This document shows positions 690-32,299 of a DNA stretch of 64,000 nucleotides, piece by piece; positions within the stretch are counted from its first letter, which is position 1, and each line of letters starts with the position of its first letter. Source of the stretch: an uncultured Actinomycetota bacterium (lineage in GTDB: Bacteria; Actinomycetota; CALGFH01); contig CAVTCL010000003.1 in NCBI GenBank assembly GCA_963733175.1, positions 11,640-75,639 on the forward strand, in the 5' to 3' direction. The position numbers were made by a program, and so were the translations under genes. Below the pieces are notes generated by a model, which was not told where the DNA came from, did not search any database, and was given only the letters and a program-made list of their open reading frames with translations.

Positions 690-1345
690 GGGGTCCCTCC
701 GTCGTCGGACGCCAGGCCGAGGGCGTGGCGGACCTTCCGGTAGCTGTCGTCGGGCCGGGTGACGTCGAACCAGACGGCCGCCATGCCGGCGGCGGCGGCG
801 CCGGCGGCGTTGGCCGGCTGGTCGTCGACGAACACCGCCTGGTCGGGGGCGACCCCGAGGCGGTCAAGGACCAGCCGGTAGGCGGCCGGCTCCGGCTTGC
901 GGGTCCCGTGCCGGGAGGCGTCGACCACGCAGCCGACCTCGGCCAGGACCCGGATCCTGTCGATCCATGCCTGGTCGTGGAAGTCGTAGAGGTCGTTGGT
1001 GAGCACCGCCGTCTCCAGGCCGCGCCGCCGGGCGGCGGCGACCAGGTCGCGGGCCTGGGGGCGGACCAGCTCGGCCTCGGGCCCGTCGAACAGCCGGGCC
1101 ATCATGGCCGGGACCCCGTCGGTGCCCGAGACCGCCGCCACCTCGGCGGCCCGGGCCGCCCAGTAGTCCCGCTCGCCCAGCTCCCCCGCCTGCATGGCCC
1201 GCCACAGCGGGTCGGCGGCCGGGTCGAACGGCCCCCGCCAGGCGAAGGTGCCCGGCGGCACCCGCAGCGACCGCTCCATGGCGGCCACCCGCTCGAACGG
1301 GGTCACCAGCACCGGCCCGCCGAAGTCGAGCACCACCGCCTTCAC
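686..1345 (-). CDS. HAD-superfamily hydrolase, paralog 1
   Basis: VKAVVLDFGGPV...FVDDQPANAAGAAAAGMAAVWF; DxG at the N-terminus and a C-terminal DD motif; GTG start overlaps the Rieske ferredoxin stop (GTGA). Confidence 0.7.
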   Translation of the reverse strand: MKAVVLDFGGPVLVTPFERVAAMERSLRVPPGTFAWRGPFDPAADPLWRAMQAGELGERDYWAARAAEVAAVSGTDGVPAMMARLFDGPEAELVRPQARDLVAAARRRGLETAVLTNDLYDFHDQAWIDRIRVLAEVGCVVDASRHGTRKPEPAAYRLVLDRLGVAPDQAVFVDDQPANAAGAAAAGMAAVWFDVTRPDDSYRKVRHALGLASDDGGTP

Positions 1346-1719
1346 CGGTCGCCGCCCCGGGCCGGGATCCCCTCGCGGGCGTGGTCGAGGAGGAGCTCGC
1401 GCCAGGAGCGGGGCGGCGGGGCGGGCGGGACCGTGACCCGGACCTCGCCGTCGACCACCCGGACCGGGTAGCTGGCCACCGCCAGGCCCGGCTGGCCGAG
1501 CCGCCGGCCGCTGCGGACGTCGTAGCGCCACCAGTGCAGCGGGCAGACCAGCACCTCGCCGTCCAGGTAGCCGCAGGCCAGGGACCCGCCGCGGTGCAGG
1601 CAGGTGTCGTCGAGGGCGAACAGCTCCCCGCCGGCGTTGCCGACGGCCACCCGCCGCCCGGCCGCCTCCAGCAGCCGCACCGACCCGGCGGGGAGCTCCT
1701 CGACCCGTCCCGCCGCCAC
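1342..1719 (-). CDS. Rieske [2Fe-2S] ferredoxin
   Basis: CLHRGGSLACG...CPLHWW Rieske cluster motifs (CXH / CXXH); about 125 aa. Confidence 0.75.
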   Translation of the reverse strand: MAAGRVEELPAGSVRLLEAAGRRVAVGNAGGELFALDDTCLHRGGSLACGYLDGEVLVCPLHWWRYDVRSGRRLGQPGLAVASYPVRVVDGEVRVTVPPAPPPRSWRELLLDHAREGIPARGGDR

Positions 1720-1744
1720 CTCGACCGGCTCCGGCGAGGTCCGG

Positions 1745-1969
1745 TCATGCGTCGCCCTCGGACGGGCCGGGGTCGACCGGGCCCCTGGCCACCGAGTAGG
1801 GGACGCCGCCGATGCCCCACAGGTCCGGGTCGACCTCGTTGACCAGCACCCGGACCCGGTCGATGGGCGTGTCCAGGGTGCGGGCGACGACCTGCGACAC
1901 CTCCTCGACCAGCCGGATCAGCACCGCCTTGTCGCGGCCGCGGACCAGGTCGATGCGGACGAGGGGCAT
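1745..1969 (-). CDS. 4-oxalocrotonate tautomerase family protein
   Basis: MPLVRIDLVRGRDKAVLIRLVEEVSQVVARTL; N-terminal Pro-1 after Met; about 74 aa. Confidence 0.8.
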   Translation of the reverse strand: MPLVRIDLVRGRDKAVLIRLVEEVSQVVARTLDTPIDRVRVLVNEVDPDLWGIGGVPYSVARGPVDPGPSEGDA

Positions 1970-1988
1970 GGGTCCTCCTTGGGTCGGG

Positions 1989-2777
1989 TCAGCGGACGGC
2001 CAGCTCCACGGTCCCCAGCCGGCCCAGGCGGGCCACGACCACGTCGCCTGGCGCCACCGGCACCGCCTCGGTGAGCCCGCCCGACAGGACCACGTCCCCG
2101 GCGGCCAGGCCGCGCCCCCGGCGGTGGAGGGCCCGGACCAGCCAGGCCACGGCCGCGGCGGGGTGGCCGAGGGAGGCCGCCCCGGCGGCGGTCGCCCTGA
2201 CCTGCCCGCCCAGCTCCAGGACGCAGCCGACCAGGCGCAGGTCGATGCCGTCGACGGCCTGGCGGACACCCCCGAGGACCAGGCGGGCGGCCGAGGCGTT
2301 GTCGGCGACCACGTCGGGCAGGGTGAAGGCGTAGCCGGCGTAGCGGGAGTCGATCACCTCGATCGCCGGGGCCACGGCGGCGGTGGCGGCCAGCACCTGG
2401 GCGGCCCCGACGCGCTCCCCGGCCAGGTCGGTGCCGAGCAGGAAGGCGATCTCGGGCTCGACCCGGGGCTGGATGAGCCGGCCGGTGTCCAGCGGCTCGC
2501 CGACGTCGAGCAGCATGGCGTCGGTCAGCTCGCCGTAGAGCGGCTCGGCCACCCCCATCTGGGCCTGCTTGGCCCGGCTGGTCAGCCCGATCTTGTAGCC
2601 GGCCGGGCGCTCCCCCGCCGCCACCAGCAGCCGCACCCCGGCCTCCTGGACGGCGTAGGCCCCCTCGAGGTCGAGCCCGGGATGCTCGGCGGTCAGGCCG
2701 GTCCCGGCGGTGCGGCCTTCCCGCAGCCCGGCCAGCTGCCGGGCCAGGGCCTCCGGGTCGACGCCGGGGTGGCTCAC
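1989..2777 (-). CDS. 2-keto-4-pentenoate hydratase / 4-oxalocrotonate decarboxylase (MhpD fold), copy A
   Basis: 262 aa; [24 protein letters not shown]... typical MhpD/XylI/XylJ family; GTG start overlaps the aldolase stop (GTGA). Confidence 0.8.
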
Positions 2778-3817
2778 GCCGGCTGCTCCCGCGCGGCCGG
2801 CTGGCCCGCCGGGGTTGCCTTGCGGGCCAGCTCCAGGGCGACGTCGAGGATCATGTCCTCCTGGCCGCCGACGATGCGGCGGCGGCCGAGCTCGAGCACG
2901 ATCTCGCCGACGTCGACCCCGTAGCGGGCCGCGGCCCGCTGGGCGTGGAGCAGGAACGACCCGTACACCCCGGCGTAGCCGAGCAGCAGGCCGGCCCGGT
3001 CGATCACCCCCATCTCGGGCCGCAGCGGGCGCACCAGGTCCTCGGCCACCCCCATCGCCTCCAGCGGGTCGACCCCGGTGGTCAGGCCCAGCTTGTCGCA
3101 GGTGGCCACCAGCACCTCGGTCGGGCAGTTGCCGGCGCCGGCGCCGAGGCCGGCGCAGCAGCCGTCGAGCTGGTCGGCGCCCACCTCCAGGGCGGCCAGC
3201 GAGTTGGCCACGGCCAGCGACAGGTTGTTGTGGGCGTGGTGGCCGACCTGGCAGCCGAGCCCCTCGGCGAGCGTCCCCACCCGGGCCCGGGCGTCGGCGG
3301 TGGTCATGGCCCCGGCCGAGTCGACCACGTACACGCAGTCGGCCCCGTAGGACTCCATCAGCCGGGCCTGCTCCAGCAGCGCCGCGGGCTCGGCCATGTG
3401 GGCCATCATCAGGAACCCGACCGCCTCCATGCCGAGCCGCTTGGCCAGGCGGATGTGCTGGGCGGAGATGTCGGCCTCGGTGCAGTGGGTGGCGATCCGG
3501 GCCACCTGGACGCCGCGGTCGGCCATGTCGCGCAGGTCGTCGGCGACGCCGATCCCGGGCAGCAGCAGCACCGCGATCCGGGCGGTGGTGGCGGCGGCGA
3601 CCGCGGCCGAGACCAGGTCGCGCTCGTCGGTGCCGGAGAAGCCGTAGTTGAACGAGGAGCCGCCCAGCCCGTCGCCGTGGCTGACCTCGATCACCGGCAC
3701 CCCGGCGGCGTCCAGGCCGCGCACGATCGAGGTCACCTGCTCGGTGGTGTAGCGGTGCGACAGGGCGTGGGAGCCGTCGCGCAGGGTCGAGTCGGTCAGC
3801 CGGAAGGCGGCGCTCAT
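2774..3817 (-). CDS. 4-hydroxy-2-oxovalerate aldolase
   Basis: [19 protein letters not shown]...[45 protein letters not shown], the DmpG/MhpE/BphI signature; ATG overlaps the acetaldehyde dehydrogenase stop (ATGA). Confidence 0.9.
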
Positions 3818-4728
3818 ACCGGCACCTCCCGGTCGGCCCGCGCCTCGGCGATGGCCTCGCCGACCCGGACGGCGGCCGAGGTCATGATGTCGAGGTTGCC
3901 GGCGTACGGGGGCAGGTAGTCGCCGGCGCCCTCGACCTCCAGGAGGGCCACCACCCGGGCGGCGGCCGGCCCGCCCGGGGTCGCGTACGGCCCCTCCTCG
4001 AACACCGGTGGGCGCTTGAGCCGGTAGCCGGGCACGTACCTGGCGACCCGGGCCACCATGTCCTCGACCGCCTCGGCGACCGCCGCCTCGTCGTAGCCGT
4101 CGGGCAGGGCGCAGAACACGGTGTTGCGCATCAGGATCGGCGGGTCGGCGGGGTTGAGGATGATGATCGCCTTGCCGTGGCCGGCCCCGCCGACCTCCTC
4201 CAGGGAGCGGGCGGTGGTCCGGGTGAACTCGTCGATGTTCTGTCGGGTGCCCGGCCCGGCCGAGCGCGAGGCGACGGTGGAGACGATCTCGGCGTACGGC
4301 ACCGGGCTGGCCGAGGCCACCGCGGCCACGATCGGCGCCGTGGCCTGGCCGCCGCAGGTGATCAGGTTCATGTTCGGCGCGTCCAGGTGCTCGGTCAGGT
4401 TGACGCCTGGCACGACCGGCGGGCCCAGCCTGGCCGGGGTCAGGTCGACGGCGGTGATGCCGGCGGCGGCCAGCCGGGGCGCGTTGGCGGCGTGCACCCG
4501 GGCGCTGGTCGCCTCGAAGGCCAGGTCGATCTCGCCGGCATGGTCCTCGACCCAGTCGATCCCGGAGGCGGTCGCCTCCACGCCCAGCTCCCGGGCCCGG
4601 GCCAGGCCGTCGGACGCCGGGTCGATGCCGACCAGGGCCCGCAGCTCCAGCGACGGCGAGCGCAGCAGCTTGTGCACCAGGTCGGTGCCGATGTTGCCGG
4701 ACCCGATGACCACGCACGACAGCGTCAC
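3814..4728 (-). CDS. acetaldehyde dehydrogenase (acetylating), DmpF/MhpF type
   Basis: [17 protein letters not shown]...[16 protein letters not shown]; 304 aa; GTG start overlaps the hydratase copy B stop (GTGA). Confidence 0.9.
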
Positions 4729-5429
4729 GAGCTTCCTCCCCGGTGGACGACCAGGCCGACCGGGCCCAGCCAGTCGAACTCGGCCCGGAACACGTCGCCG
4801 TCGGCCAGCGGGACGGCGGCGTGGAGGGCGCCGGTCATGACCACGTGGCCGGCCTCCAGCGTCGCCCCGAGCGGGTGCAGGGTGTTGGCCAGCCAGGCGA
4901 CCGCGTGCAGCGGGTCGCCGAGGGCGGCCGCGCCGGCGCCGGTGCCGACCAGCTCGCCGTTGCGGGTGACGGCCACCCCGGCCAGCCCCGGGTCGACCTG
5001 GTCGAGGGGGACCAGGCGGCTGGACAGGGCGATGGCGGAGCTGGAGGCGAGGTCGGCGATGGTGTCGGCCAGCCGGATGCGCCAGTCGGCGATCCGGGAG
5101 TCGATGATCTCCATGGCGGCCACCGCCCCGGCGGCCGCCCGGCGGACGTCCAGGGCGGTGCAGTGGGGGCCGGCCAGCGGGGCCGCCAGGACGATGGCGA
5201 TCTCGGCCTCGACCTTGGGCTGGATCAGCCGGTCGAGGTCGACCCGGACGCCGTCGGGATGGACCCCGCCGGCCAGCACCGGGCCGTAGTCGGGCTCGTC
5301 GATGCCGAGCTGCTCCTGCATGGCCCGGCTGGTCAGGCCGAGCTTGTAGCCGACGACCTCGCCCTGGCCGTCGGCCTGGAGCAGCTCGACCAGGCGGCGC
5401 TGGACGGCGTAGGCCTCGGCGGCGGTCAT
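4725..5429 (-). CDS. 2-keto-4-pentenoate hydratase / 4-oxalocrotonate decarboxylase (MhpD fold), copy B
   Basis: [17 protein letters not shown]...[26 protein letters not shown]; 234 aa. Confidence 0.8.
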
Positions 5430-8100: not shown

Positions 8101-8101
8101 G

Positions 8102-11185: not shown

Positions 11186-11213
11186 CCCGGGCATCGACGG
11201 AAAGGACACGGCC

Positions 11214-13032: not shown

Positions 13033-13044
13033 GGAGGCCGTTGC

Positions 13045-14295: not shown

Positions 14296-14551
14296 GGCGG
14301 ACCTGCTGCCGGAGGACCCGCACCCCCTGCCGCCGCCCACCGCCTGGTTCGCCCGCGACGCCGAGCGCCACCTGCTGGACGCCCCCCGCCACTGCCCCCG
14401 CTGCGGCGCCGCCATCGGCGGTCCCGACGGCCTGGTGGTCGAGTACTGGGCGGCCGACGACCGCGTCTTCTACTGCTGGTGCCGCTCCTGCGACTGGACC
14501 GGCACCGTGGTCCAGGTCGACCGCCACATCGGCCACGAGGCGGCCGACTAG
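14288..14551 (+). CDS. small zinc-ribbon-like hypothetical protein
   Basis: 87 aa with CPRCGAA...CWCRSC (two CxxC pairs); ATG overlaps the oxygenase stop (ATGCCTGA). Confidence 0.4.
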   Translation: MPEADLLPEDPHPLPPPTAWFARDAERHLLDAPRHCPRCGAAIGGPDGLVVEYWAADDRVFYCWCRSCDWTGTVVQVDRHIGHEAAD

Positions 14552-16920: not shown

Positions 16921-17012
16921 CGGCCCATGTTCCCATGCGCGACCGGCGGGCGGTCGCGGCGGGCGCCGCACCCGTTGACTGGTGACGGGGCGAGGGGCAG
17001 ATTACGGCCGAC

Positions 17013-18421
17013 ATGGCGGTCATCGATCCAGGTGCCCTGCGCGCGCTCCGGCGTCGGTTCGGAGGGCGGGTCCTGGGTCCCGACGACCCCGGGTATCGCG
17101 ACGCGCGCCGCGTCTGGAACGCGATGGTGGACCGGCGTCCGGCGGTCATCGCCAGGTGCGGCAGCCGGGAGGACGTGGTCGCGGCCATCTCCTTCGCCCG
17201 CCAGACCGGGCTCGAGGTGGCGGTGCGCAGCGGCGGTCACAGCGTCTCGGGCCACTCCTCCACCGACGGCGGCATCGTCATCGACTTGACCGAGATGCGC
17301 ACCGTCACGGTGGACCCCGAGGCGCGCGTCGCCAGGGTGGACGGGGGTGCGCTCCTGTGCCACCTGGACGCCGGGACCCAGCGGTTCGGGCTGGCCACCA
17401 CCGGGGGATGGTGTCCCACACCGGCGTCGGCGGGCTGACCCTCGGCGGCGGGTACGGCTACCTGTCCCGGCGGTTCGGGCTGGCCTGCGACAACCTGCTC
17501 GCCGCCGAGGTGGTGCTGGCCGACGGGACGGTCACCGTGGCCAGCGACTCCAGCGAGCCCGACCTGTTCTGGGGGCTCCGGGGCGGCGGGGGCAACTTCG
17601 GGGTCGTCACCCGCTTCGAGTTCCGCCTGCACCCCGTCGGGCCGGCCGTCTTCTCCGCCGACCTCACCTTCGCGGCCGACGACGGCCCGGCGGTCCTGCG
17701 CGCCTTCCGCGACCTCGCCCTCGGGCGGCAGGACATCGTCAGCGGCGCCTACGCCGGCGCGGTGTCCCGGTCCTGGGCCGGGTTCGACGACCTGGTCGGG
17801 CGGCCGATCGTGAGCGTGGACTTCACGGTGACGGGGCCGGACCCCGGCGAGGGCGCGGCCGTCGTGGCGTCGCTGCGGAGCGTCGCCACCCCGCTCGCCG
17901 AGACCGTCGAGTCCCTGTCCTATGTCGAGCTCCAGTCCGCCGCCGGGGCGTCCTGGCGGCCGGGCACGTCGCGCTGCTACTGGAAGTCCTCGGTCTTCTC
18001 CGAGCTCCCCGACGGGCTGCTGGACGCCTTCGTCGAGCGTGGGGTGGCGTCGGCCGCCGTCTCCGAGGGCTGCGGCCTGGAGCTGGTCGCCGCCTTCGGT
18101 GGCGCCGTCTCGGAGGTGGGAGAGGACGACACCGCGTTCAGCCACCGCCACGCCCAGGTCGACTTCCTCGCCCTCGGGCGGTGGGACGACCCGGCCGACG
18201 ACGAGCTCCACATCGAGCTGTGCCGCCGGAACTGGGCGGCGCTGGCCCGGTTCTCCGACGCCGGCGTGTACGTCAACAACCTGGGGCAGGAGGACCGGGT
18301 GCGCGAGGCCTACGGCGAGGCGAAGTACCGGCGGCTGGTCGCCCTCAAGGACCGGTTCGACCCGGACAACCTGTTCCACCTCAACGCGAACATCCGGCCG
18401 TCCGCGGGCGCTCGCGGCTAG
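17013..18421 (+). CDS. FAD-binding oxidoreductase (VAO/PCMH / BBE-like), copy 1, apparent frameshift
   Basis: ..VIARCGSREDVVAAISFARQTGLEVAVRSGGHSVSGHS.. then a frame change at the G5 run (about 17405) to ..VSHTGVGGLTLGGGYGYLSRRFGLACDNLLAAEVVLADG...GGGGNFGVVTRFEF...; C-terminal BBE-like domain. Confidence 0.75.
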
Positions 18422-18924
18422 CGTCGGCGGTCGCGCCGGACCACCAGCTCCAGCTCGACCGCGAACCCGAGCGGGAGGGCGGCCACCCCGACCGCCGAGC
18501 GGGCATGGCGGCCGCGGTCGCCGAACAGCTCCACCAGCAGGGCCGAGGCGCCGTCGACCACGGCCGGGACGGCGGTGAAGCCGGGGGTGCAGGCGACGAA
18601 GCCGACCAGCTTGACGACCTGGCCCACCTGGTCCAGGTCGCCGAGGGCGTCGCGGGTCTGGGCGAGCAGGTTCAGCGCGCAGTCGCGGGCGGCCTTCTGG
18701 CCCTGCTCGACGGTGAGGTCGGCCCCGAGGCGGCCGACCCAGCCGTCGGCGCCCTGGCCGGACAGGAACAGCAGGTCGCCGGCTGACACCCAGCCCTCGT
18801 ACAGCCCGGCCCTTGGCCGCAGCGCCGGCAGCTCCAGGCCCAGCTCGGCCAGCCGCCGTTCCGGGCCGGGTCCCTCCGGTGGCCGGCCGCGGGGTGGGAC
18901 GGCGAACACCCGGCCCGGGCTCAT
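18418..18924 (-). CDS. RidA/YjgF/TdcF-family protein (enamine/imine deaminase); candidate 2-aminomuconate deaminase
   Basis: 168 aa ..LVGFVACTPGFTAVPAVVDGASALLVELFGDRGRHARSAVGVAALPLG..; the RidA fold. Confidence 0.7.
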   Translation of the reverse strand: MSPGRVFAVPPRGRPPEGPGPERRLAELGLELPALRPRAGLYEGWVSAGDLLFLSGQGADGWVGRLGADLTVEQGQKAARDCALNLLAQTRDALGDLDQVGQVVKLVGFVACTPGFTAVPAVVDGASALLVELFGDRGRHARSAVGVAALPLGFAVELELVVRRDRRR

Positions 18925-19526
18925 CGGACGCTGAACACCCGGCCGGGCCCGGGCGGCGGCGGGTCGGGGTCGAGCCCGAGACGGGCGAGCAGGGCGGCGA
19001 TCGAGCCGGCGGGGTCGCGGACCTCGAACAGCAGCGTCTGCATCCCGACGGCGGCGGCACCTTCCAGGTTGACCGCCAGGTCGTCCACGAACAGGCAGCG
19101 CCCGGGGGCCTCGCCGATCTCGGCCGCGGCCAGCCGGAACGCCTCCGGGTCGGGCTTGAGCACCCCCAGGCGGGCCGCCTCCACCACCTGGTCGAACCCG
19201 CCCAGCTCCGGGAACCGCCCCGGCCAGTCAGGCCCGAACCAGTGCGCCATGTCGTTGGTGAACGCCACCAGCCGGACCCGCCCGGCCAGCGCATCCACCG
19301 CCGCCCGGACCTCGCCCCGCACCCGCGAGCAGGCCCGCCACAGCGCCCCCACGTCCAGGTCGGGCCGCCGCTCGCCCAGCCGGGCCCAGTAGTCCCGCTC
19401 GGCCAGCTCCCCCCGCTCCACGGCCGCGTACTCGGCCTCCCCCCGGAACGGCCCCCCGGGAAACCCCGCCACCGCCACCGACTCGAACAGGGTCGGGATC
19501 ACCACCCCACCCATGTCCAGCAGCAC
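18921..19526 (-). CDS. HAD-superfamily hydrolase, paralog 2
   Basis: VLLDMGGVVIPTLFE...CLFVDDLAVNLEGAAAVGMQTLLF; similar to the HAD genes at 686 and 30605; the start (GTG vs ATG 19514) is uncertain. Confidence 0.65.
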   Translation of the reverse strand: MLLDMGGVVIPTLFESVAVAGFPGGPFRGEAEYAAVERGELAERDYWARLGERRPDLDVGALWRACSRVRGEVRAAVDALAGRVRLVAFTNDMAHWFGPDWPGRFPELGGFDQVVEAARLGVLKPDPEAFRLAAAEIGEAPGRCLFVDDLAVNLEGAAAVGMQTLLFEVRDPAGSIAALLARLGLDPDPPPPGPGRVFSVR

Positions 19527-19924
19527 CGCCGCCGGCGCCCGCCCCGCCCTCCCGGCCCGGCCCCCGGCCCTGGCCCCGGCGGCCCGCCACAGCGCCCGCC
19601 GCCGCCGCACCGCCCAGTCGTCCAGGTCCACCGGAGCCCCAGCCCGCGCGGCCCCGGGGTCGACCGCGCAGAGGTCACCCGAGGGTGCACCTGGGGGCCA
19701 TGCACCCAGAAGGTGCACCCACCGCTCCTCGGATTGCCGCCGCTACCCCCCCAAGGGGGAGCGTAGACGACCCCGGATCTGGGTCCGGGTGCTCGTCCAC
19801 AGCCCCCTGGGGTCCTGGCGACCCCGGACCCGGGTCCCGTTGCCTGTCCACGGGCCCATCGGGTCCCCGGGTTCTCCTGGGCCCTCCGGGTCCCTCGGCA
19901 GCGACCATCGATCCGGTCCGCGGC

Positions 19925-21754
19925 CTACCCGAGCACCGTGACGACGCCTTCGCTGCCGTCGACCCGGATGCGCTGGCCGGTCTTGATGGTGGCGACCGCC
20001 TTGCCGGTGCCGATCACCGCCGGGAGGCCGTACTCGCGGCAGATGATGGCGGTGTGGCTCATGATCCCGCCGACGTCGGAGACGGTGGCGGCGATCCGGG
20101 AGAACACCGGCGACCACGACGGCGAGGTGGCCGGGCAGACCAGGATCTCGCCCTCCTGGACCTGGTCCAGCTCGGTGACGTGGCGCACGACCCGGGCCGG
20201 GCCCTCGACCACCCCGGGCGACCCGGCCACCCCGCGCAGGGTCGCCTGGCCGTCGCCGTCGCCCTCGCCTTCCCGGAGCCATTCGCCGACCGTGTCGGTG
20301 GTGATGCCCCAGAGCATGACCGTGAACGGCTCGCTCACCTCGGCCGGCGGCGGCCCGAGGGCGGGGACGGCGTCGGCCGCCGACAGCGCCGCGTGGATGC
20401 GGCGCCGCTCGGTCACGATCGGCCGCCAGTAGTCGGCCCCCCGGGCCCTGCTCCCCACCGACCAGGCGGCCACGGCGTCGTACAGCGCCTCCATGACCTC
20501 GTAGCGGCGCAGGAAGAACATGTCCTCGGGGTCGTCGAAGATGCCCATGGCCTGGAGGGCCCGCGACAGCTCCTTGGACTTGCCCCAGAAGGTGGCCCAC
20601 AGCCAGTGCTCGATGTAGAGCACGTGCTCCTCGATGTAGACGAACACCTTGCGGGCCAGGGCGACCATCTCGTCGAAGGCGGCCTGGTCGCCTTCGGCCA
20701 GCAGCGCCCGGTACTCGGCGGTGATCCGGTCGCGCTCGGCCAGGACCTGCTCGGTCGGGCGGTCGAGGGCCTCGCCGGCCCGCAGCCGGCGCACGTACTC
20801 CTTGACCGAGGCCAGCGGGATGCCGGGGTCGTCCAGCCAGGTGTCGTAGTAGTGGTAGCCGCCCGGGTGCCCGGGGTCGGTGTTGAACAGGAACCACGGG
20901 TCCGAGGTCCGCTCCCAGTCGGCCACCCACTCGCGGCCGCCCTCGCTCCCCTTGAGCTCCTCGAACAGCGAGCCCGGGTCGCCGGCGCCAAGGACGGCCT
21001 CGCCGACCCCGAGGCGCTCGGCCTCCTTGGCCAGGCGCTTGAGCTCGTCGTCGGGCCGGTACAGGTCGACGTGGAGGCCGCCCACCATGCGCGAGATCGA
21101 CTGGTCGGTGATGTCACCGAACGCCTGCTTGGCGAACATGAAGAAGGTCAGGTAGGCGGCGTAGCCGACGTTGAGCAGCTCGAAGTGGTACTGGTAGGTC
21201 TTGTACATGGTCAGGACGAGGTTGGAGAAGTCCTCGATCATCCGGTACCCGGACGAGTAGCCGACGTGGTCGAAGACCACCGACTCGTCCTCCAGCTCGG
21301 GCAGGGGCTCGAACCGGATCGCCTTGATCTCCTCCAGGTGGGCGGTGACCTTGTCCTTCCACTCGGCGTAGATCTGGTCCCAGTGCTCGTAGTAGTGGCC
21401 GCCGCGGCGGCCGAACAGCTCGGCCCGCGCGGGCACGCTCTCGGGCGGCGCCGGGACCGGGGTCACGTACAGGTAGCCGTTGAGGATCCGCTGGTCCACC
21501 CCGAAGGCGGGCGGCATGGCGAAGATGCGGGTGTTGAACGCCCCCAGGGCCTGCCACCAGCACTCGCACTGGATCTCGTCGTAGGGGTGGAGCACGCCCG
21601 GGTGGTGCAGCCGGTCCTGGAACCAGAACCGCTGCTCGTCCAGGTCGCGGCGGTCGTCGCCGAACAGGTGGTACCAGTTGTACATCTGCTCCCAGCCCTC
21701 GGCCCCCTCGGGCGTCGGCACCTCGAACGGGCTGGGGAAGCGGTCCTGGCTCAA
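19925..21754 (-). CDS. PEP-utilising enzyme with mobile (swivel His) domain (PpsA-like), copy 2 (intact)
   Basis: 609 aa (M/L)SQDRFPSPFEVPTPEGAEGWEQMYNWYHLF...GVAGSPGVVEGPARVV...EILVCPATSPSWSPVFSRIAATVSDVGGIMSHTAIICREYGLPAVIGTG; TTG start overlaps the BMC vertex gene stop (TTGA). Confidence 0.85.
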   Translation of the reverse strand: MSQDRFPSPFEVPTPEGAEGWEQMYNWYHLFGDDRRDLDEQRFWFQDRLHHPGVLHPYDEIQCECWWQALGAFNTRIFAMPPAFGVDQRILNGYLYVTPVPAPPESVPARAELFGRRGGHYYEHWDQIYAEWKDKVTAHLEEIKAIRFEPLPELEDESVVFDHVGYSSGYRMIEDFSNLVLTMYKTYQYHFELLNVGYAAYLTFFMFAKQAFGDITDQSISRMVGGLHVDLYRPDDELKRLAKEAERLGVGEAVLGAGDPGSLFEELKGSEGGREWVADWERTSDPWFLFNTDPGHPGGYHYYDTWLDDPGIPLASVKEYVRRLRAGEALDRPTEQVLAERDRITAEYRALLAEGDQAAFDEMVALARKVFVYIEEHVLYIEHWLWATFWGKSKELSRALQAMGIFDDPEDMFFLRRYEVMEALYDAVAAWSVGSRARGADYWRPIVTERRRIHAALSAADAVPALGPPPAEVSEPFTVMLWGITTDTVGEWLREGEGDGDGQATLRGVAGSPGVVEGPARVVRHVTELDQVQEGEILVCPATSPSWSPVFSRIAATVSDVGGIMSHTAIICREYGLPAVIGTGKAVATIKTGQRIRVDGSEGVVTVLG

Positions 21755-22059
21755 GGGCTGGTCCTTTCCGCTCGGCGTTCCGCTCGGCGGGGCTTGGGGG
21801 AGGTGGGCGGGGTCGGGAGCCGGTCGGCGCCCGCGACCAGGGCGACCACGGCCGCGTCGACGGCCGCCCCGCCGGTGGCGGTCTGGGCGGCGTCGTCGGT
21901 GACGACCAGCACGGTGTTGCCGGCGGCCACGTCGACCAGGTCGACGGCCACGTGCGCGGCCGAGGTGGACAGGTCCCGGACCAGCACCATGCGGCGGCCG
22001 TCCAGGTCGGGCACCTGGCGCTCGGACCAGACCCGGCCGAGGACCTCGGCCAGCAGCAT
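21751..22059 (-). CDS. bacterial microcompartment vertex protein (BMC-P, EutN/CcmL/PduN family)
   Basis: 102 aa MLLAEVLGRVWSERQVPDLDGRRMVLVRDL...GNTVLVVTDDAAQTATGGAAVDAAVVALV matches the PF03319 pattern (V.G.vw..r...l.g..l.lv...G..vl...g.a....vDaavv); ATG overlaps the BMC-H stop (ATGA). Confidence 0.8.
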   Translation of the reverse strand: MLLAEVLGRVWSERQVPDLDGRRMVLVRDLSTSAAHVAVDLVDVAAGNTVLVVTDDAAQTATGGAAVDAAVVALVAGADRLPTPPTSPKPRRAERRAERTSP

Positions 22060-22397: not shown

Positions 22398-22406
22398 CTG
22401 GGCCTC

Positions 22407-22700
22407 CTATCCGTCCAGCAGCCGCGGGTTGCCGGCGATGGCCGCGACCGGCCGGCTCGGGCTGGCGAAGATGATCGACTTGACCTTGCCCCGGGAGACG
22501 GCCCTGGCCGTCTCCTCCCCGATCTCCACCGCCTCCTCGACGGTGGCCAGGTCGCCCCCGAGGGCGACCGCGACCAGTCCCCCGCCCAGGCGCATCACCC
22601 CGTTCACCCGCACCTCGGTCGCCTTCACCATCGCGTCGATGGCGTCGAAGATGGGGACGAACCCTTCGGCCTCGATGAACCCGGCCGCCTCGTTGGCCAT
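22407..22700 (-). CDS. bacterial microcompartment shell protein, BMC-H, copy 2
   Basis: MANEAAGFIEAEGFVPIFDAIDAMVKATEVRVNGVMRLGGGLVAVALGGDLATVEEAVEIGEETARAV; ggagg Shine-Dalgarno. Confidence 0.85.
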   Translation of the reverse strand: MANEAAGFIEAEGFVPIFDAIDAMVKATEVRVNGVMRLGGGLVAVALGGDLATVEEAVEIGEETARAVSRGKVKSIIFASPSRPVAAIAGNPRLLDG

Positions 22701-22723
22701 GCCGCTCCTCCCTCTCGTGCGTG

Positions 22724-23549
22724 TCAGGTGCCGTCCAGCCAGGTGACCACGGCCGCCCCGGTCCCCCAGACCGGGCCGTACTCGAGCACCCGGGCCTGGC
22801 CGTCGCAGGCGCCGCTGCCGGCCAGGAAGGCCAGCGCCCGGAACTGGCTGTCCGCCTGCGCCTCGCGGGCGTACTGCTCGCGCAGGGCCAGCGACCTCGT
22901 CGGTCCGGCCGGCGGCGAGCAGGTCGAGCACGCGGCGGTTCCAGGCGTCGTGGCCGGCGTCCTCGAAGCGGTCCTCGGCCGGCTCGATCCAGCGCTGGAT
23001 GAGGCCCGAGGACAGGCCCGAGATGGCCACGAAGGCGACCCGCCGGCCGAGCTCGCCGGCCGCCCGGGCCGCCGCCTCGGCGATCCGGCCGAGGTCGCCG
23101 GCGGCGGCGTACAGGTTGCAGGAGACCAGCGCGATCGGGCGCGAGCGGTCGGGGTCGACCAGCCGGCCGGCGACCACCGTGCCGGTGTCGACCGGGAAGC
23201 CGTCGTAGCGGGTGCGCCTGGCCTGGAAGCCCATGTCCTCGGCCTGGCAGGCCCAGGCCTCGGCCAGCTCCACGTCGACCCGGAGGTCGTAGTCGAGGGT
23301 GCCGTAGTCGTAGGCGTACCAGTTCTCGTCGACGTGGTGGCCGCGGGGGTTGGGGTCGACCTGGAACTGGTGGCCGAGCACGGTGAACCACTGGGTCGAG
23401 AGGACCACGAACGCGTCCGGGCCGGCCGCCAGGAGGTCCCGGCCGGCCTGCCGGGCCGCGTCGGCCAGCAGCTTCCAGCTCGGCGCCGGCTCGGCCGCCA
23501 GCAGGTGCGGCATCCCCGGGACGAGGGCCGCCCCGACGACCGCCTTCAT
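22724..23549 (-). CDS. LigB-type (class III) extradiol ring-cleavage dioxygenase subunit, copy 2 (AmnA/AmnB-like), apparent frameshift near the 3' end
   Basis: MKAVVGAALVPGMPHLLAAEPAPS...VVLSTQWF...HQFQVDPNPRGHHVDENWYAYDYGTLDYDLRVDVELAEAWA...; the C-terminal ..LALREQYAREAQADSQFRALAFLAGSGACDGQARVLEYGPVWGTGAAVVTWLDGT* is found in another frame from about 22895. Confidence 0.75.
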
Positions 23550-23562
23550 CGGGCACCCCGCT

Positions 23563-24528
23563 CACGAACGGGCTCCGGTCATCGGGGCGGGGCCGGCCGG
23601 CGTCGTCGGGGCCGGGGGCCCAGCCCGGCGGGGCGGGATGGGCCAGGGCCGGGCTGGCCGGGTCCCATTCGATCACCGCGTTGCCGGTGCCGATGATGGT
23701 CCCGTAGCCGAGCACGTCCCCCGGGATCTCCGGCCAGCCGAGGGCCGACAGCAGCCACGACAGGCTGCCCGCCTTGACCTCGGCCGCGGTGGCCTCGATG
23801 TGGCGGGGCAGGAACGCCCGCAGCTCCCGGGTCCTGCCCGCCCGGACCAGGGTGAGGAGATCCATGTCCCAGCGGTACTGGTGGTCGTCGTAGGGGTGCT
23901 CGGCGGCCATGTCCTCCGGCACCTCCGGCTCCCGGTCCCAGTGGAGGTGGGAAAGCGAGTTCGACCCGGCCAGCACGGCCCGCCGCCCGGTCTGCTCGAC
24001 GGCCCGGCGGGTGGCCGCGCCGAGGCGTTCCATCTGCTCCAGGTCGGCGTCGGAGTAGAAGTAGGGGTTGTTGTTGGCCGACAGCGACACCACCGGGACG
24101 TCCCAGTCCGGGTTGAGCAGGTGCAGGGCGCCGATGGTGGCGTAGTCGACCCGCACCCCCGGGTTGGTCATCTTGCGGGTGACCAGGCCGGCGTCGGCGG
24201 CGCAGTCGGCGATCGCCTCGGCCAGCTCGACGTCGGTGCGGAAGTCGTACCGGTAGCGCAGCAGGTGCGGGAAGATCGGCTCGACCGACAGGCCGCGGGG
24301 GTTGGGCACGCAGTTCACGTGGTGGCCGACCATGGTGATCCAGTGGGGGGCGTGGACCACGATCACGTCGGGCCGGTGCCGCTCCCGCAGCCGCCGCCTG
24401 GCCTCCTGATAGGCCCAGCGCAGCAGCTCCCAGCCACCCCGGGAGCGGGGCTCGTTCTGGGGCGGGTTCTCGGCGTAGATCAGATGCGGCGGGTGCGGCG
24501 CCAGGTACCCGGCCACGATCCCCGGCAT
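23563..24528 (-). CDS. LigB-type (class III) extradiol ring-cleavage dioxygenase subunit, copy 1 (AmnB/AmnA-like); 3' end uncertain
   Basis: MPGIVAGYLAPHPPHLIYAENPPQNEP...VVHAPHWITMVGHHVNCVPNPRGLSVEPIFPHLLRYRYDF...GYGTIIGTGNAVIEWD; no stop in this frame, while the +1 frame has a TGA at 23563-23565, 14 nt before the next ATG, so an indel near 23570-23660 is likely. Confidence 0.7.
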
Positions 24529-24679
24529 GCGGTCGTCGCCGTCCGGGCCCGGTCCGGCCGCCGGGACGGCCGCCGGAGGCTGGGCCGTCCGCGGCGCCCG
24601 CCGCCGGTCCCCCACGGTGACGTGGAAGACACGCGACATGCCCGGACGCTAGCCACCGGCTCGCCCGTTGCCTACGCTT

Positions 24680-24717: not shown

Positions 24718-25479
24718 ATGACGAACAACGTCGCCCGGGTGGGCTCGGTCACCAAGGCGGCGCGGGTGCTGCAGGCGTTCACGCCGTTGGTGACCTTGCT
24801 CAGTGTGCGGCAGGTGGCCGAGCGGACCGGGATCCCGCGGAGCACCGCGCATGCGCTGTGCGTGACCCTGTGCGATGCCGGGCTGCTGGAGGAGGCGGCG
24901 GGCCGGGGATACCGGCTGGGGCCGGCCCTGGTCGGGCTCGGCGGGCAGGTGATCGAGCGGACCGGGCTGGTCGACGCCGCCGAGGGGGTGCTGGACCGCC
25001 TGGGTCCCGGGGACGGGCTCGAGATCCACCTGGGCCAGCTCGTCGGGGGGTGGGTCGTGTACCTGGACCGGGCCAGCGGGCCGGTGCGGGCGCCGATGCA
25101 CAACCGGGTCGGGCTGCGGGCCCCGGCCCACCTGACCGGGTGCGGCAAGGCCGCCCTGGCGCTGCTGCCGCCGGCCGAGGTGGCGGCCCGGGTCGAGGCG
25201 GTGTGCGCGGCCGAGTCGCGCCAGCTCCCCGACCTGCGCGCCCTGGCCGGGGAGCTGGCCGCCGCCCGGCGGGCCGGGTTCGTGGTCAGCGACACCTTCC
25301 AGGCCGGCCGCACCTCGGTGGCCGCCCCCGTCCCCGACCCGGCCGGCCAGCCGGCCGGCGGCATCTCGGTCGCCGGCCCGACCCCGCTGCTGGCCGGCGC
25401 CCGCCTCGACCGGATCCGGGACCAGGTGGTGGCGGCGGCCAGCCTGATCGGCCAGCGCCTGGCCGGCCCCGGCCGCTGA
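24718..25479 (+). CDS. IclR-family transcriptional regulator, divergent from the BMC/dioxygenase operon
   Basis: MTNNVARVGSVTKAARVLQAF...LSVRQVAERTGIPRSTAHALCVTLCDAGLL (helix-turn-helix) plus an effector domain; 253 aa. Confidence 0.8.
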   Translation: MTNNVARVGSVTKAARVLQAFTPLVTLLSVRQVAERTGIPRSTAHALCVTLCDAGLLEEAAGRGYRLGPALVGLGGQVIERTGLVDAAEGVLDRLGPGDGLEIHLGQLVGGWVVYLDRASGPVRAPMHNRVGLRAPAHLTGCGKAALALLPPAEVAARVEAVCAAESRQLPDLRALAGELAAARRAGFVVSDTFQAGRTSVAAPVPDPAGQPAGGISVAGPTPLLAGARLDRIRDQVVAAASLIGQRLAGPGR

Positions 25480-29850: not shown

Positions 29851-30608
29851 GTGAACCTCCCGAGTCGGCGGGTGACCTCGGCCCAGGCGGGCGAGGCGGG
29901 GTCGATCACGGCCATGTGGTCGACGCCGGCCAGCTCGACCAGCTCGACGGGGTCGCCGGCGGCGGCCGCGGCCGCGGCGTGGGCCCGGCTCTGCTCCACC
30001 GGCACCCGGTCGTCGGCGTCGCCGTGGACCAGGAGCTGGGCGACGCCCAGGGGCAGCCGGGCCAGGGGGGAGGCGAGCCGGTAGCGCTCGGGGTCCTGGT
30101 CAGGGGTGGCGCCGAGGAACTCGGCGACGGCGCCCTCCCCGATGCCGCCGGCCGCTCCGGCGTGCAGGTCGCACACGCCGGCCAGGCTCACCACCAGGCG
30201 CGGGGCGACCAGCGGCCCCGCCCCGGGGGCGCCGGCCGGCAGCCCCGCCCGGGCGGCCGACCACAGCGCGAGGTGGCCGCCGGCCGAGTGCCCGGCCACG
30301 ACCAGCCGGTCCAGGTCCAGCGGTTCCCGCCCGGCCAGCCGGGCCAGATGGTCCAGGCCGGCGGCCACGTCCTCGCAGGTGCCCGGCCAGCCGCCGCCGG
30401 GCTGGCCGACCCGCCGGTACTCCAGGTTCCAGGCCGCGAACCCCCGGCCGGCCAGGTCGGCGGCGAGCGGCCGCATCAGCTCCAGGGTCCGCTGGGCCCG
30501 CCAGAACCCGCCGTGCAGCAGCACCACCACCGGCCAGGGCCCGTCGCCGGCGGGCCGCCACAGCTCCCCGAACCGGTCCGCCCCCGGACCGTAGGCCTCG
30601 ACCGTCAC
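29847..30608 (-). CDS. alpha/beta hydrolase (esterase/lipase, BD-FAE type)
   Basis: ..VVVLLHGGFWRAQ...VVAGHSAGGHLALW...HGDADDRVPV; oxyanion HGG, GHSAG nucleophile and Asp/His; GTG start overlaps the HAD stop (GTGA). Confidence 0.75.
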   Translation of the reverse strand: MTVEAYGPGADRFGELWRPAGDGPWPVVVLLHGGFWRAQRTLELMRPLAADLAGRGFAAWNLEYRRVGQPGGGWPGTCEDVAAGLDHLARLAGREPLDLDRLVVAGHSAGGHLALWSAARAGLPAGAPGAGPLVAPRLVVSLAGVCDLHAGAAGGIGEGAVAEFLGATPDQDPERYRLASPLARLPLGVAQLLVHGDADDRVPVEQSRAHAAAAAAAGDPVELVELAGVDHMAVIDPASPAWAEVTRRLGRFT

Positions 30609-31258
30609 AGCCCGAGCCGGCGCCGGACCCGGGCGAAGGACCCGGCCGGGTCGGCGATGTCGAAGTGGACCCCGGACATGCCGGCGGCGGTGGCGCCGGC
30701 CACGTTGGCCGGGTCGTCGTCGACGAACACGATCGCCGGCGGGTCCAGGCCCATCGCCGCCGCGGCCTGGTCGTAGGCCCGAGGGTCGGGCTTGGCCACG
30801 CCGGTCTCGCTCTCGTCCAGGAGCACGTCGAAGGAGCTGAGGAAGTCGCTGCGCTCGACCACCTCCCGGCTCAGGAACGCCACCAGCTTGCTGGTGAGCA
30901 GGCCGGTGCGCCGCCCGGCGGCGCGGGCGTCGGCGACCAGGGCACGACCCTCCGGCCGCACGGCCAGCCCGGCCGGCGTCTCGAACATCGCCCTGGTCAC
31001 CTCCGGCCAGCTCACGGGCCGGCCGAGCAGCGCGCTGATCTCGGCCGCCCGCCGGTCGAAGTAGCCGGCGGAGGCCAGCTCGCCGGCCCGGACCGAGCGC
31101 CACAGCGGGTCGGTGGCCGGGTCGAGCGGGCCCCGCCAGGGCAGGGTCCCTGGCGGCCAGCCGTTGCGGGCCTCGAACTCCTCCAGCAGCTCCCACGGGG
31201 TGGGGAGCAGGACCCCGCCCACGTCGAGCAGGACCCCCTTGCCGTCGGCACCCGCCAT
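30605..31258 (-). CDS. HAD-superfamily hydrolase, paralog 3
   Basis: MAGADGKGVLLDVGGVLLPTPWE...IVFVDDDPANVAGATAAGMSGVHF; 217 aa. Confidence 0.7.
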   Translation of the reverse strand: MAGADGKGVLLDVGGVLLPTPWELLEEFEARNGWPPGTLPWRGPLDPATDPLWRSVRAGELASAGYFDRRAAEISALLGRPVSWPEVTRAMFETPAGLAVRPEGRALVADARAAGRRTGLLTSKLVAFLSREVVERSDFLSSFDVLLDESETGVAKPDPRAYDQAAAAMGLDPPAIVFVDDDPANVAGATAAGMSGVHFDIADPAGSFARVRRRLGL

Positions 31259-32299
31259 TCAGCCGGGCCCGGCCTGGCCGGGTGCGCCGGGTCGGCCCAG
31301 GTAGGCGAGCATCCGGTCCATGGCCGAGGTCCCAGGGGGGACAACGGCCTGGCGGGGCCGGCGGCTCCACACCGTCTCCGGCCGGGCCTGGAGCAGCCAC
31401 AGCTCGCGCCCGCCCGCCGCTCCGGGGGCCGCGCCCGCCGCCGTCGTTCCCGGTGCGGCCGGCGGCCCGACCGCCCACTCGACGTCCTGGGGCACGCCCA
31501 GCGCCTGCTCGACGCGCTTGCCCAGCCTGGCCAGCTCGGCCACCTCGGCGTCGTCCAGGCACGGCCGCGCCCGGTCGGCGGCCGGCACCTCGACCCGGGC
31601 GACCCGCCCGGCGGCCGGGTCGAACCGGTAGGCGAACGCCTTCTCGCCGACCGAGCGGGAGCGCAGCTCCAGGGTGACCTTGTCGACGGCGAACCGGTCG
31701 GGGGTGACCTCCCCCTCGACCACCGCGGTGCCGAGCCCGTAGGCGGCCTCGATGGTGACCTGGGAGCGGTCGCCGGTCAGCGGGTCGAGGGTGAGCAGCA
31801 CCCCGGCGGCCTCGGCCGGGACCATGGCCTGGACGACCACGCCCATGGCGACCTCGTCGTCACCGATGCCCAGCCGGGCCCGGTAGGCGACCGCGCGGTC
31901 GGTGAACAGGCTCGCCCAGCAGCGGGCGACGTTGGCCAGCACGGCATCGGCGCCCCGGACCCACAGGTAGGTGTCCTGCTGGCCGGCGAAGGAGGCCTCG
32001 GCGGTGTCCTCGGCGGTGGCGCTGGAGCGGACCGCCACCGGCGGGTCCCGGTCCCCGGCCCGGCCGAGGCGCCGGTAGGCGGCGACGAGCTCGGCGGCCA
32101 GGCGGTCGCCGACCGTCGCCGGCCGGCCGCCGGCGGCCAGCGCCTCCCGGTAGGCGGCGGTGGTGACGGCGAACCCGGGCGGCACCCGGTGGCCCTGGCG
32201 GACCAGGTGGCCGAGCCCGACCGCCTTCCCCCCGACCAGCGGCGCGGCGTCGGCGCCGCACGCCTCCAGCGGGAGGACATGGCTGGCCGGGTCGCGCAC
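31259..32299 (-). CDS. PEP-utilising enzyme N-terminal ATP-binding domain protein (PPDK_N; PpsB-like), copy 2 (intact)
   Basis: 346 aa ..GGKAVGLGHLVRQGHRVPPGFAVTTAAY...VAVRSSATAEDTAEASFAGQQDTYLWV...MGVVVQAMVPAEAAGVLLTLDP...LDDAEVAELARLGKRVEQALGVPQDVEWAV...LWLLQARPETVWS; GTG start with ggagg Shine-Dalgarno. Confidence 0.85.
   Translation of the reverse strand: MRDPASHVLPLEACGADAAPLVGGKAVGLGHLVRQGHRVPPGFAVTTAAYREALAAGGRPATVGDRLAAELVAAYRRLGRAGDRDPPVAVRSSATAEDTAEASFAGQQDTYLWVRGADAVLANVARCWASLFTDRAVAYRARLGIGDDEVAMGVVVQAMVPAEAAGVLLTLDPLTGDRSQVTIEAAYGLGTAVVEGEVTPDRFAVDKVTLELRSRSVGEKAFAYRFDPAAGRVARVEVPAADRARPCLDDAEVAELARLGKRVEQALGVPQDVEWAVGPPAAPGTTAAGAAPGAAGGRELWLLQARPETVWSRRPRQAVVPPGTSAMDRMLAYLGRPGAPGQAGPG

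Follow-up and report, generated by a model that had tools for sequence, protein, structure and literature searches.

The region examined here is a 64,000-nucleotide stretch (64 kb, hereafter the window) of contig CAVTCL010000003.1 from an uncultured Actinomycetota bacterium, and the subject is a gene pair encoding a Rid-family protein and a HAD hydrolase at the end of a microcompartment operon. The G+C content of the window is about 75%; genes were called in a codon-position-aware manner and the encoded proteins were checked by profile searches. The operon is an ARO (aromatics) microcompartment locus of the kind published before (PMC8217296, PMC10470539). The HAD and Rid genes are located on the same strand as, and downstream of, two LigB-family dioxygenase genes, two BMC-H genes, one BMC-P gene and a PEP-utilizer gene, and the TGA of HAD overlaps the ATG of the Rid gene as ATGA in the window sequence. 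The Rid gene is the sole Rid-family gene of the window, which otherwise encodes a complete pathway. The first-pass annotation had placed both genes behind this operon and had proposed the Rid protein as a 2-aminomuconate deaminase; both open reading frames (ORFs) proved to be real, their block recurred in all homologue contexts examined, and by locus context the Rid gene is probably the best candidate of the pathway for this step. The features are collected in Table 1.

Table 1. Genes, peptides and repeats of the ARO locus and of related regions in the window
Feature	Position	Strand	Basis
Lower meta-cleavage operon	3..5429	-	profile searches
Aldehyde dehydrogenase, cut by window edge	3-689	-	lower operon
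HAD	686-1345	-	lower operon
Rieske ferredoxin	1342-1719	-	lower operon
4-oxalocrotonate tautomerase	1745-1969	-	lower operon
4-oxalocrotonate decarboxylase	1989-2777	-	lower operon
DmpG	2774-3817	-	lower operon
DmpF	3814-4728	-	lower operon
Hydratase	4725-5429	-	lower operon
BBE-type FAD oxidase, convergent to Rid1, frameshift near 17400	16982..18421	+	profile match
Rid1-subfamily (PF14588) imine/enamine deaminase, 168 aa, candidate 2-aminomuconate deaminase of type II ARO locus	18418..18924	-	PF14588 71.5 bits
Rid1 N-terminal peptide MSPGRVFAVPP, candidate targeting tag	18892..18924	-	homologue alignment
29-nt tandem duplication across HAD stop and Rid1 start; core ccgggtgttc at 18933-18942 and 18904-18913	18895..18950	-	read from sequence
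HAD-IA (variant 3) hydrolase, 236 aa from GTG at 19631, motif I DxGGV	18921..19631	-	PF00702, TIGR01509, TIGR02247
HAD C-terminal peptide PGRVFSVR after Pro-rich linker, candidate targeting tag	18924..18947	-	motif scan
PEP-utilizer (mobile His domain), 609 aa, PRK08296 family, swivelling half of split dikinase	19925..21754	-	PF00391; NF006153 773 bits
BMC-P (EutN/CcmL) pentamer shell protein	21751..22059	-	PF03319
BMC-H shell protein, 112 aa	22059..22397	-	PF00936; 97-99% identical to metagenome-assembled genome (MAG) loci L010-L012
BMC-H shell protein, 97 aa, N-terminus MANEAAGF	22407..22700	-	profile match; separate gene in relatives
ARO dioxygenase alpha subunit (LigB family, non-catalytic), frameshifted	22724..23549	-	tblastn, two pieces, 99% and 93% identity
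ARO dioxygenase beta subunit (2-aminophenol 1,6-dioxygenase type), N-terminal extension MSRVFHVTVGDRRR...	23562..24639	-	55% identical to CnbCb
Beta-subunit N-terminal R-V-F peptide	24619-24639	-	comparison across ARO loci
Divergent IclR-type regulator, conserved in ARO loci	24718..25479	+	PF09339, PF01614
HAD paralogue of operon HAD, beside PPDK_N	30605..31258	-	profile match
PPDK_N, ATP-grasp half of dikinase	31259..32299	-	profile match

The HAD gene had been given a span up to 19526, and this was right as to the gene and wrong as to its limit. Position 19526 is an internal GTG (Val36) and not the gene start; in the gene calls of 98%-identical relatives the gene starts at the GTG at 19631, and the frame in the window is open to 19718. 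A span ending at 19526 retains the catalytic Asp39 and loses a conserved N-terminal extension of the HAD protein. A conserved basic segment, W..RRRR.L.R.A, was seen in this extension (window 19520-19718), and a Cys-rich stretch, CxCxC...C, was found upstream of the basic segment in Solirubrobacterales-type loci (L007 9111-9320; L009, L013, L014, L018).

The best family of the Rid protein was PF14588, with 71.5 bits compared to a cut-off of 35, while PF01042 reached 51 bits and TIGR00004 (RidA) 25.5 bits against a cut-off of 106.25. The nearest solved structures by both sequence and fold were Atu1372 (3d01), SO_1960 (2otm), PA0814 (9bk9) and ACIAD3089 (9bkb). The AlphaFold2 model of the protein (pLDDT 91.7) matched Rid1 structures in Foldseek with E-values from 1e-18 to 1e-15, a TM of about 0.8 and identities of 27-43%, compared with an E-value of only about 1e-7 for RidA structures. 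Arg142 (in GRHARSAVGV), Glu157 and Glu159 were invariant in 65 homologues, and Arg142 aligned with the HAR motif of 3d01 and PA0814. On this motif alignment Arg142 would correspond to RidA Arg105, the residue from which imine deaminase activity is predicted; PA0814 and ACIAD3089 are Rid1-subfamily proteins and proven imine deaminases (PMC5619798).

The deaminases of the AmnE/NbaF type form a different and tight clade, with 64-76% identity across Pseudomonas, Polaromonas, Burkholderia, Streptomyces and Micromonospora. One of its members, a protein from the amn cluster of Pseudomonas veronii, matched PDB 6IZH (AmnE) at 5.8e-72; its identity was 64-76% to Rid proteins encoded in the nba/3-hydroxyanthranilate clusters of Polaromonas, Burkholderia and Streptomyces and to the Rid protein of the reference ARO locus of M. 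rosaria. The members of this clade matched PF01042 only. The Rid protein of the window showed 22-27% identity to five of them, and 6IZH was absent from its PDB matches even at E<=10. In a neighbour-joining tree, the deepest split parted the AmnE clade (100% bootstrap) from the ARO Rid1 clade (84.5%). By profile, fold and tree, the window protein is thus assigned to the Rid1 subfamily (hereafter Rid1), outside the AmnE/NbaF clade and apart from housekeeping RidA; the membership in the NbaF/AmnE type proposed in the first-pass annotation was not borne out, and neither of the two groups between which a phylogeny was expected to decide, NbaF/AmnE and canonical RidA, received the protein. A second, different RidA-type gene was observed in the proteobacterial amn/cnb/nba clusters (L041 8527-8955; L040 8497-8916; L092 2583-2969), either upstream of the dioxygenase or behind the dehydrogenase; the mutual identity of these genes is 51-57%, and their identity to the AmnE type about 30%.

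Within Rid1, the spacing from SGQ to G[RK][LV]G was 6 residues in the proteins from ARO loci and from Bacillales, compared with 10-11 residues in those from unrelated contexts (Paenarthrobacter pTC2, Sphingomonas, Hymenobacter and Streptomyces NBC_01727). The Ser-Gly of the SGQ motif lines the ligand cleft in AmnE (PMC6742747), and the deletion of 5 loop residues beside this active-site Ser-Gly is, as judged from the alignment, a derived feature common to ARO and Bacillales Rid1.

The block LigB-LigB-BMC-H-BMC-H-BMC-P-[PPDK_N]-PEP-utilizer-HAD-Rid1 was found in every readable homologue context. These homologues ranged in identity from 98% to 59% and came from uncultured Actinomycetes, Pseudonocardia, Solirubrobacterales and Thermoleophilia. 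The synteny of Rid1 held in 7 of 7 contexts of 73-98% identical homologues and in 22 further loci, the HAD-Rid1 gene order was kept in about 28 loci, and Rid1 shared an operon with an AmnBA-type dioxygenase in about 29. Since the block recurs in all homologue contexts examined, the placement of Rid1 and HAD cannot be attributed to chance. The neighbouring LigB genes had been called AmnAB-like, and this was confirmed by 55% identity between the beta subunit and CnbCb of pCNB1 and by an MSRVF start that the characterised, crystallised enzyme of M. rosaria shares. The N-terminal extension of the beta subunit amounts to about 37 residues ahead of the GIVAG core in the window (MSRVFHVTVGDRRR...), and the corresponding sequence in M. 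rosaria begins MSRVFRVPLAPTRGG.... The ARO gene order of the window is also that of M. rosaria (L042).

The distribution of the two deaminase types was scored at the level of the locus, i.e. about 10-20 kb around the shell genes. In roughly 35 ARO loci the two types were never found together (22 against 7 distinct loci). Of the loci with adequate flanks, 29 (about 22 distinct) contained Rid1 only, 7 the AmnE type only, none both and 3 neither, an exclusivity with a Fisher p of 3.6e-5, uncorrected for phylogeny. The AmnE type alone was found in M. rosaria, A. viridis, two Amycolatopsis, Kibdelosporangium, Kutzneria and a Gemmatimonas MAG. In Amycolatopsis, Kibdelosporangium and Kutzneria the genes PPDK_N-PEP-utilizer-HAD-HisPhos are kept and the deaminase is of the AmnE type, and in A. 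jejuensis (L035) Rid1 directly follows the alpha gene, with neither HAD nor dikinase; because of these patterns, the swap concerns the deaminase slot and not the HAD module.

The closest relatives outside ARO loci, at 48-54% identity, were found on a plasmid of Bacillus sp. F19 and in Aneurinibacillus and Peribacillus. All three Bacillales contexts read HpaB, 3-hydroxyanthranilate 3,4-dioxygenase, ACMSD, Rid1, aldehyde dehydrogenase, FAA, DmpF, DmpG and FAA, which is another route producing 2-aminomuconate, and no AmnE-type gene was present in these three clusters.

Taken together, these results suggested that the gene at 18418-18924 encodes a specialised Rid1 enamine/imine deaminase that most likely serves the 2-aminomuconate deaminase step of the type II ARO pathway, a reading to which we give a probability of about two in three. 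Rid1 would most likely be a distant paralogue that displaced the usual AmnE/NbaF-type deaminase without being a member of that clade; because it lies outside the clade, the functional argument comes from comparative genomics and not from family membership. In the proposed pathway, the AmnBA-like dioxygenase (24639-22724) would open a 2-aminophenol-type ring to 2-aminomuconate semialdehyde, which an NAD-dependent aldehyde dehydrogenase would oxidise to 2-aminomuconate. A trimer of Rid1 would then bind the 2-imino tautomer via the conserved Arg142 and release ammonium and 4-oxalocrotonate, and the lower operon (3-5429) would convert the latter to pyruvate and acetyl-CoA.

Several points weigh against this assignment. 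Human RIDA does not speed the deamination of 2-aminomuconate, and a specialised fungal deaminase is inactive on 2-iminopropanoate (bioRxiv 10.64898/2026.06.05.730449); activity on 2-aminomuconate is not a generic property of Rid proteins, and the role of Rid1 is a predicted one. Spontaneous deamination of 2-aminomuconate is also known, and its half-life is about 160 min (bioRxiv 10.64898/2026.06.05.730449). The exclusivity of the two types holds for loci only and without correction for shared ancestry, and three loci contained neither gene. As to novelty, the figures of Doron et al. 2023 (PMC10470539) may already mark Rid1 as a deaminase in Pseudonocardiales loci; literature searches on NbaF, and on Rid1 together with 2-aminomuconate, returned nothing beyond the papers cited here. 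Moreover, a catechol route that needs no deaminase is also available in the window, owing to the 4-oxalocrotonate tautomerase (1745-1969) and two genes of the catechol-2,3-dioxygenase type (7188-9013). The claim that the pathway handles 2-aminophenol rather than catechol was therefore upheld in one part: the dioxygenase type fits 2-aminophenol, as already published for ARO, but the preference is not exclusive in view of these genes. The published ARO dioxygenase cleaves 2-aminophenol as well as catechol in vitro. The tautomerase in itself was rejected as proof of a catechol-only pathway and is no argument against the amino route, because true amino-pathway clusters, those of pCNB1 and the Bacillales, contain tautomerase genes as well.

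The alternative that survives best, although we consider it unlikely, is that Rid1 serves damage control and quenches reactive imines or enamines in or near the compartment instead of catalysing a committed step. Its targets would be, for example, 2-aminomuconate semialdehyde before cyclisation to picolinate, or quinone-imines from the auto-oxidation of aminophenol, and 2-aminomuconate would decay spontaneously or through another enzyme. The spontaneous deamination of 2-aminomuconate (bioRxiv 10.64898/2026.06.05.730449) agrees with such a role, and the position of the Bacillales Rid1 between ACMSD and aldehyde dehydrogenase is equally compatible with a semialdehyde-stage substrate. However, the one-for-one exclusivity with the AmnE type is what replacement at the same step predicts and would not be expected of an accessory protector, and the shortened loop next to the cleft speaks for a specialised substrate.

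Much less probable is a partnership of Rid1 with HAD and the dikinase, in which Rid1 would act on a product of phosphorylation and dephosphorylation chemistry unrelated to the intermediates of ring cleavage. The ATGA overlap of HAD stop and Rid1 start, the HAD-Rid1 order in about 28 loci and a 29-nt duplication that links the two gene ends all speak for a close tie between the genes, but the phyletic patterns led us to reject an obligate functional pair: Amycolatopsis, Kibdelosporangium, Kutzneria and P. acaciae have HAD but no Rid1, and A. jejuensis and all Bacillales clusters have Rid1 but neither HAD nor dikinase. Finally, almost no weight can be given to Rid1 as a housekeeping RidA, or a partner of the convergent FAD/BBE oxidase, that lies beside the operon by chance: although clustering of Rid genes with FAD amine oxidases is frequent (PMC4433059) and the BBE-type FAD oxidase ends at 18421 with its stop overlapping that of Rid1, the TIGR00004 score is 25.5 against a cut-off of 106, ARO synteny is universal for the Rid1 clade, and the oxidase was rejected as an imine source for being frameshift-split in the window and missing in all relatives, in which Rid1 is followed by a methyltransferase gene or by others.

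With Rid1 as the candidate deaminase, the HAD protein, whose gene is translationally coupled to Rid1, would fall outside the deamination step and belong with the split PPDK_N/PEP-utilizer dikinase that marks type II as opposed to type I ARO. Type II loci carry a split dikinase, composed of PPDK_N and a PRK08296 PEP-utilizer, together with HAD and often a histidine phosphatase (for example L007 6174-9109 and L087 11760-15942), and type I loci carry HyuAB. The HAD gene accompanied the PEP-utilizer in every dikinase-type ARO locus that extended far enough, and no HAD was found in the HyuAB-type (type I) ARO loci. Only the C-terminal 100 residues of the PEP-utilizer matched structures of PEP synthase and rifampicin phosphotransferase, so that by sequence this protein carries the swivelling His domain only. 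In most lineages PPDK_N lies directly upstream of the PEP-utilizer. In L005, L045, L047 and L049, as in the window, a PPDK_N-HAD-hydrolase block lies upstream of IclR, and the PPDK_N at 31259-32299 is likely the partner of the operon PEP-utilizer in the window lineage.

The HAD motifs D39, T125, K159 and D183/D184 were invariant in nine orthologues and paralogues. Motif I reads D-x-G-G-V in all copies, with Gly and not Asp at the position two after the nucleophile, which departs from the DxD pattern, and the protein weakly matched NF006991, the model of YihX-type glucose-1-phosphatase. YihX carries a DxG motif. We take the split dikinase to resemble phenylphosphate synthase, and the HAD protein to resemble DxG-type phosphatases such as YihX. 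The HAD protein probably hydrolyses a phospho-intermediate made by the split dikinase, and the module as a whole hints at a phosphorylated phenolic intermediate in type II loci.

The N-terminus of Rid1 (MSPGRVFAVPP) was intact in 61 of the 72 closest homologues listed, and the remainder differed by a residue or were N-terminally truncated. The codons of the peptide showed synonymous changes in orthologous loci, and the following 10-30 residues varied in both length and sequence with the frame kept. In the AlphaFold2 model, residues 1-20 had low pLDDT and no predicted secondary structure. The peptide resembles the beta-subunit N-terminus (MSRVFH), which starts with M-[SA]-[RSN]-V-F-[HRQ] in nearly all ARO loci, and the Rid1 of a Pseudonocardia MAG has MSGVFRAGGG at the same N-terminal position. 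In nearly all dikinase-type loci, HAD proteins end with R-(V/A)-(F/W/Y)-x-x past a Pro-rich linker: PGRVFSVR* in the window, RRVFSAPRIGR* in Pseudonocardia, GRVFRLT* in Amycolatopsis, RRVFRP* in Kibdelosporangium and RAFR... in Solirubrobacterales.

The pattern R[VA][FWY] was sought in an unbiased scan that covered 803 predicted proteins of 55 loci. The motif occurred within the last 14 residues of 23 of 36 HAD proteins compared to 0 of 767 other proteins; for the first 10 residues, the counts were 27 of 44 beta subunits and 6 of 26 Rid1 compared to 7 of 733 other proteins. It was not found on the PEP-utilizer, PPDK_N, histidine phosphatase, aldehyde dehydrogenase, alpha subunit, shell proteins or AmnE type. 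In a Thermoleophilia-type lineage (L020, L039, L058, L060 and L065) the RVF peptide was missing on both the beta subunit and HAD; here the dioxygenase alpha subunit has a C-terminal extension, ..VWQAAMRPGRRR..ARSWSRP, instead.

The putative Rid1 tag arose, as read from the nucleotide sequence, by a 29-nt duplication of the HAD 3' end, and both copies encode GRVF because the 29-nt offset equals the frame difference between HAD and Rid1. The R-V-F peptide as a by-product of the ribosome-binding site of Rid1 was considered and rejected; HAD retains it in loci in which the next gene is a histidine phosphatase gene, and the dioxygenase carries it too, at its N-terminus. We tentatively propose that R-V-F-x-(V/P) on a variable linker rich in Pro, Gly and Arg may be a cargo-targeting or core-assembly signal of ARO microcompartments, a possibility that we put below even odds. 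If this is true, HAD phosphatase and Rid1 deaminase would be organelle cargo, and type II ARO would contain, or be fed by, a phospho-activation in which the split dikinase acts on a phenolic or aminophenolic substrate and dephosphorylation follows inside. Doron et al. 2023 (PMC10470539) suggested that the extension of the beta subunit may direct encapsulation and noted that it is not helical; to judge from the searchable literature, the same core on two further enzymes is new.

The aldehyde dehydrogenase, tautomerase and decarboxylase genes that the first-pass annotation had described as adjoining the Rid gene are actually located 13-18 kb away, in an operon of their own on the minus strand (3-5429). 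In the window, the partial gene at 3-689 of this satellite operon was the only aldehyde dehydrogenase seen, and in Solirubrobacterales-type relatives an aldehyde dehydrogenase follows Rid1 in the same operon. A second block at 7188-14551 (+), convergent in orientation, contains the two catechol-2,3-dioxygenase-type genes (glyoxalase-type extradiol) along with a histidine phosphatase, a second PPDK_N, a second PEP-utilizer (frameshift-split), a LigXa/VanA-like Rieske oxygenase and an 87-aa ORF. L001-L005 and L012 have kept this block, which may be the upper pathway.

Two single-nucleotide insertions were located in the dioxygenase genes of the window. Compared to 98-99% identical relatives, one base inserted at about 23585, at the 3' end of the beta gene, removes the beta stop codon, and the alignment to L001 revealed one extra G near 22893 in the alpha gene. 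Both are probably errors of long-read assembly, though they could be real inactivating mutations. A LigB::BMC-H fusion ORF (22407-23549) and a 962-aa ORF (21751-24639) were rejected as genes, since each results from such a single-base insertion and the genes are separate in the 98-99% identical relatives. In the close relative L001, an IS605-family OrfB/TnpB gene (5774-7012) lies between BMC-P and the PEP-utilizer, and in L002 no BMC-P was called where L001 has this insertion. ARO-like loci with HyuB, both dioxygenase subunits, two BMC-H plus a single BMC-P, and a G+C content of 56-67%, were found on contigs binned as Verticiella, Rhodospirillaceae and Gemmatimonas and on a 419-kb metagenome contig (L030, L032, L037 and L082). 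If the binning is right, ARO extends beyond Actinobacteria, contrary to the publication.

ARO has been described as the most unusual microcompartment known: its substrate is aromatic, its shell is minimal, and an encapsulation peptide is not recognisable. The published model organism fails to grow on 2-aminophenol. The proposal that ARO degrades 2-aminophenol is already known from Sutter 2021 (PMC8217296) and Doron 2023 (PMC10470539); the new elements here are the proposed replacement by a Rid1-type deaminase, the module of dikinase and HAD in type II loci and the R-V-F peptide common to several enzymes. The deamination of 2-aminomuconate is predicted to have been solved twice in the Rid superfamily, the second time by the short-loop Rid1 clade of actinobacterial ARO loci and Bacillales anthranilate pathways, and the short loop could serve as a sequence signature for locating 2-aminomuconate pathways. 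A likely annotation trap is corrected as well, in that the Rid1 deaminase candidates are all named 'RidA family protein'. Because many seemingly deaminase-less loci carry the Rid1 type, the published division of ARO into aminophenol loci with a deaminase and catechol loci with a tautomerase would need revising. The R-V-F peptide on three enzymes opens the cargo targeting of ARO to direct testing, and the dikinase, HAD and histidine-phosphatase module is a clue to the real ARO substrate.

Among known systems, the deaminases of the AmnE/AmnD/NbaF type (6IZH of Pseudomonas sp. AP-3; AMD of B. cenocepacia) share with Rid1 the Rid/YjgF superfamily, the conserved Arg, the predicted reaction and the niche beside 2-aminophenol 1,6-dioxygenase, or beside 3-hydroxyanthranilate dioxygenase/ACMSD, and semialdehyde dehydrogenase. 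They serve as the deaminase of type I ARO loci, e.g. that of M. rosaria, and bear the signatures GKATPRGRFPH and SGTSSRRPDNT, unlike the Rid1 of the window. PA0814 (9BK9), ACIAD3089 (9BKB) and Atu1372 (3D01) have subfamily, fold and HAR motif in common with the window protein, but they have the long SGQ loop of 10-11 residues and no aromatic-pathway context, whereas the ARO Rid1 clade is marked by the 5-residue deletion in this loop and, in the window lineage, also by the MSPGRVFAVPP extension. The Bacillales clusters hold a Rid1 with the same short loop, at 48-54% identity and between ACMSD and aldehyde dehydrogenase; they differ in having no microcompartment, HAD, dikinase or N-terminal tag, and in cleaving the ring by a cupin 3-hydroxyanthranilate 3,4-dioxygenase and not by LigB-type AmnAB.

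The published type II ARO of Pseudonocardiales (PMC8217296, PMC10470539) has the same N-terminal extension on the beta subunit and the same 2-aminophenol/catechol meta-cleavage logic as the window. Term searches of the published ARO text returned no PPDK_N/PEP-utilizer dikinase, HAD or histidine phosphatase, RidA/YjgF/Rid1 deaminase or shared terminal motif by name. According to that text, loci have either a deaminase or a tautomerase, and the window has Rid1 in the shell operon together with a tautomerase in the satellite lower operon. The R-V-F peptide is likewise comparable to the cargo-loading peptides of microcompartments and encapsulins, in which a short conserved terminal segment is joined to a poorly conserved linker rich in Pro, Gly and Arg on several cargo candidates. 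It agrees with the canonical microcompartment encapsulation peptide, an amphipathic alpha-helix of about 18 residues on a flexible linker, in having the linker; its core is only R-V-F-x-V/P and is predicted to be disordered on Rid1, not helical. The peptide is N-terminal on some proteins and C-terminal on another, and its form, known here from sequences, is nearer to that of encapsulin loading peptides.

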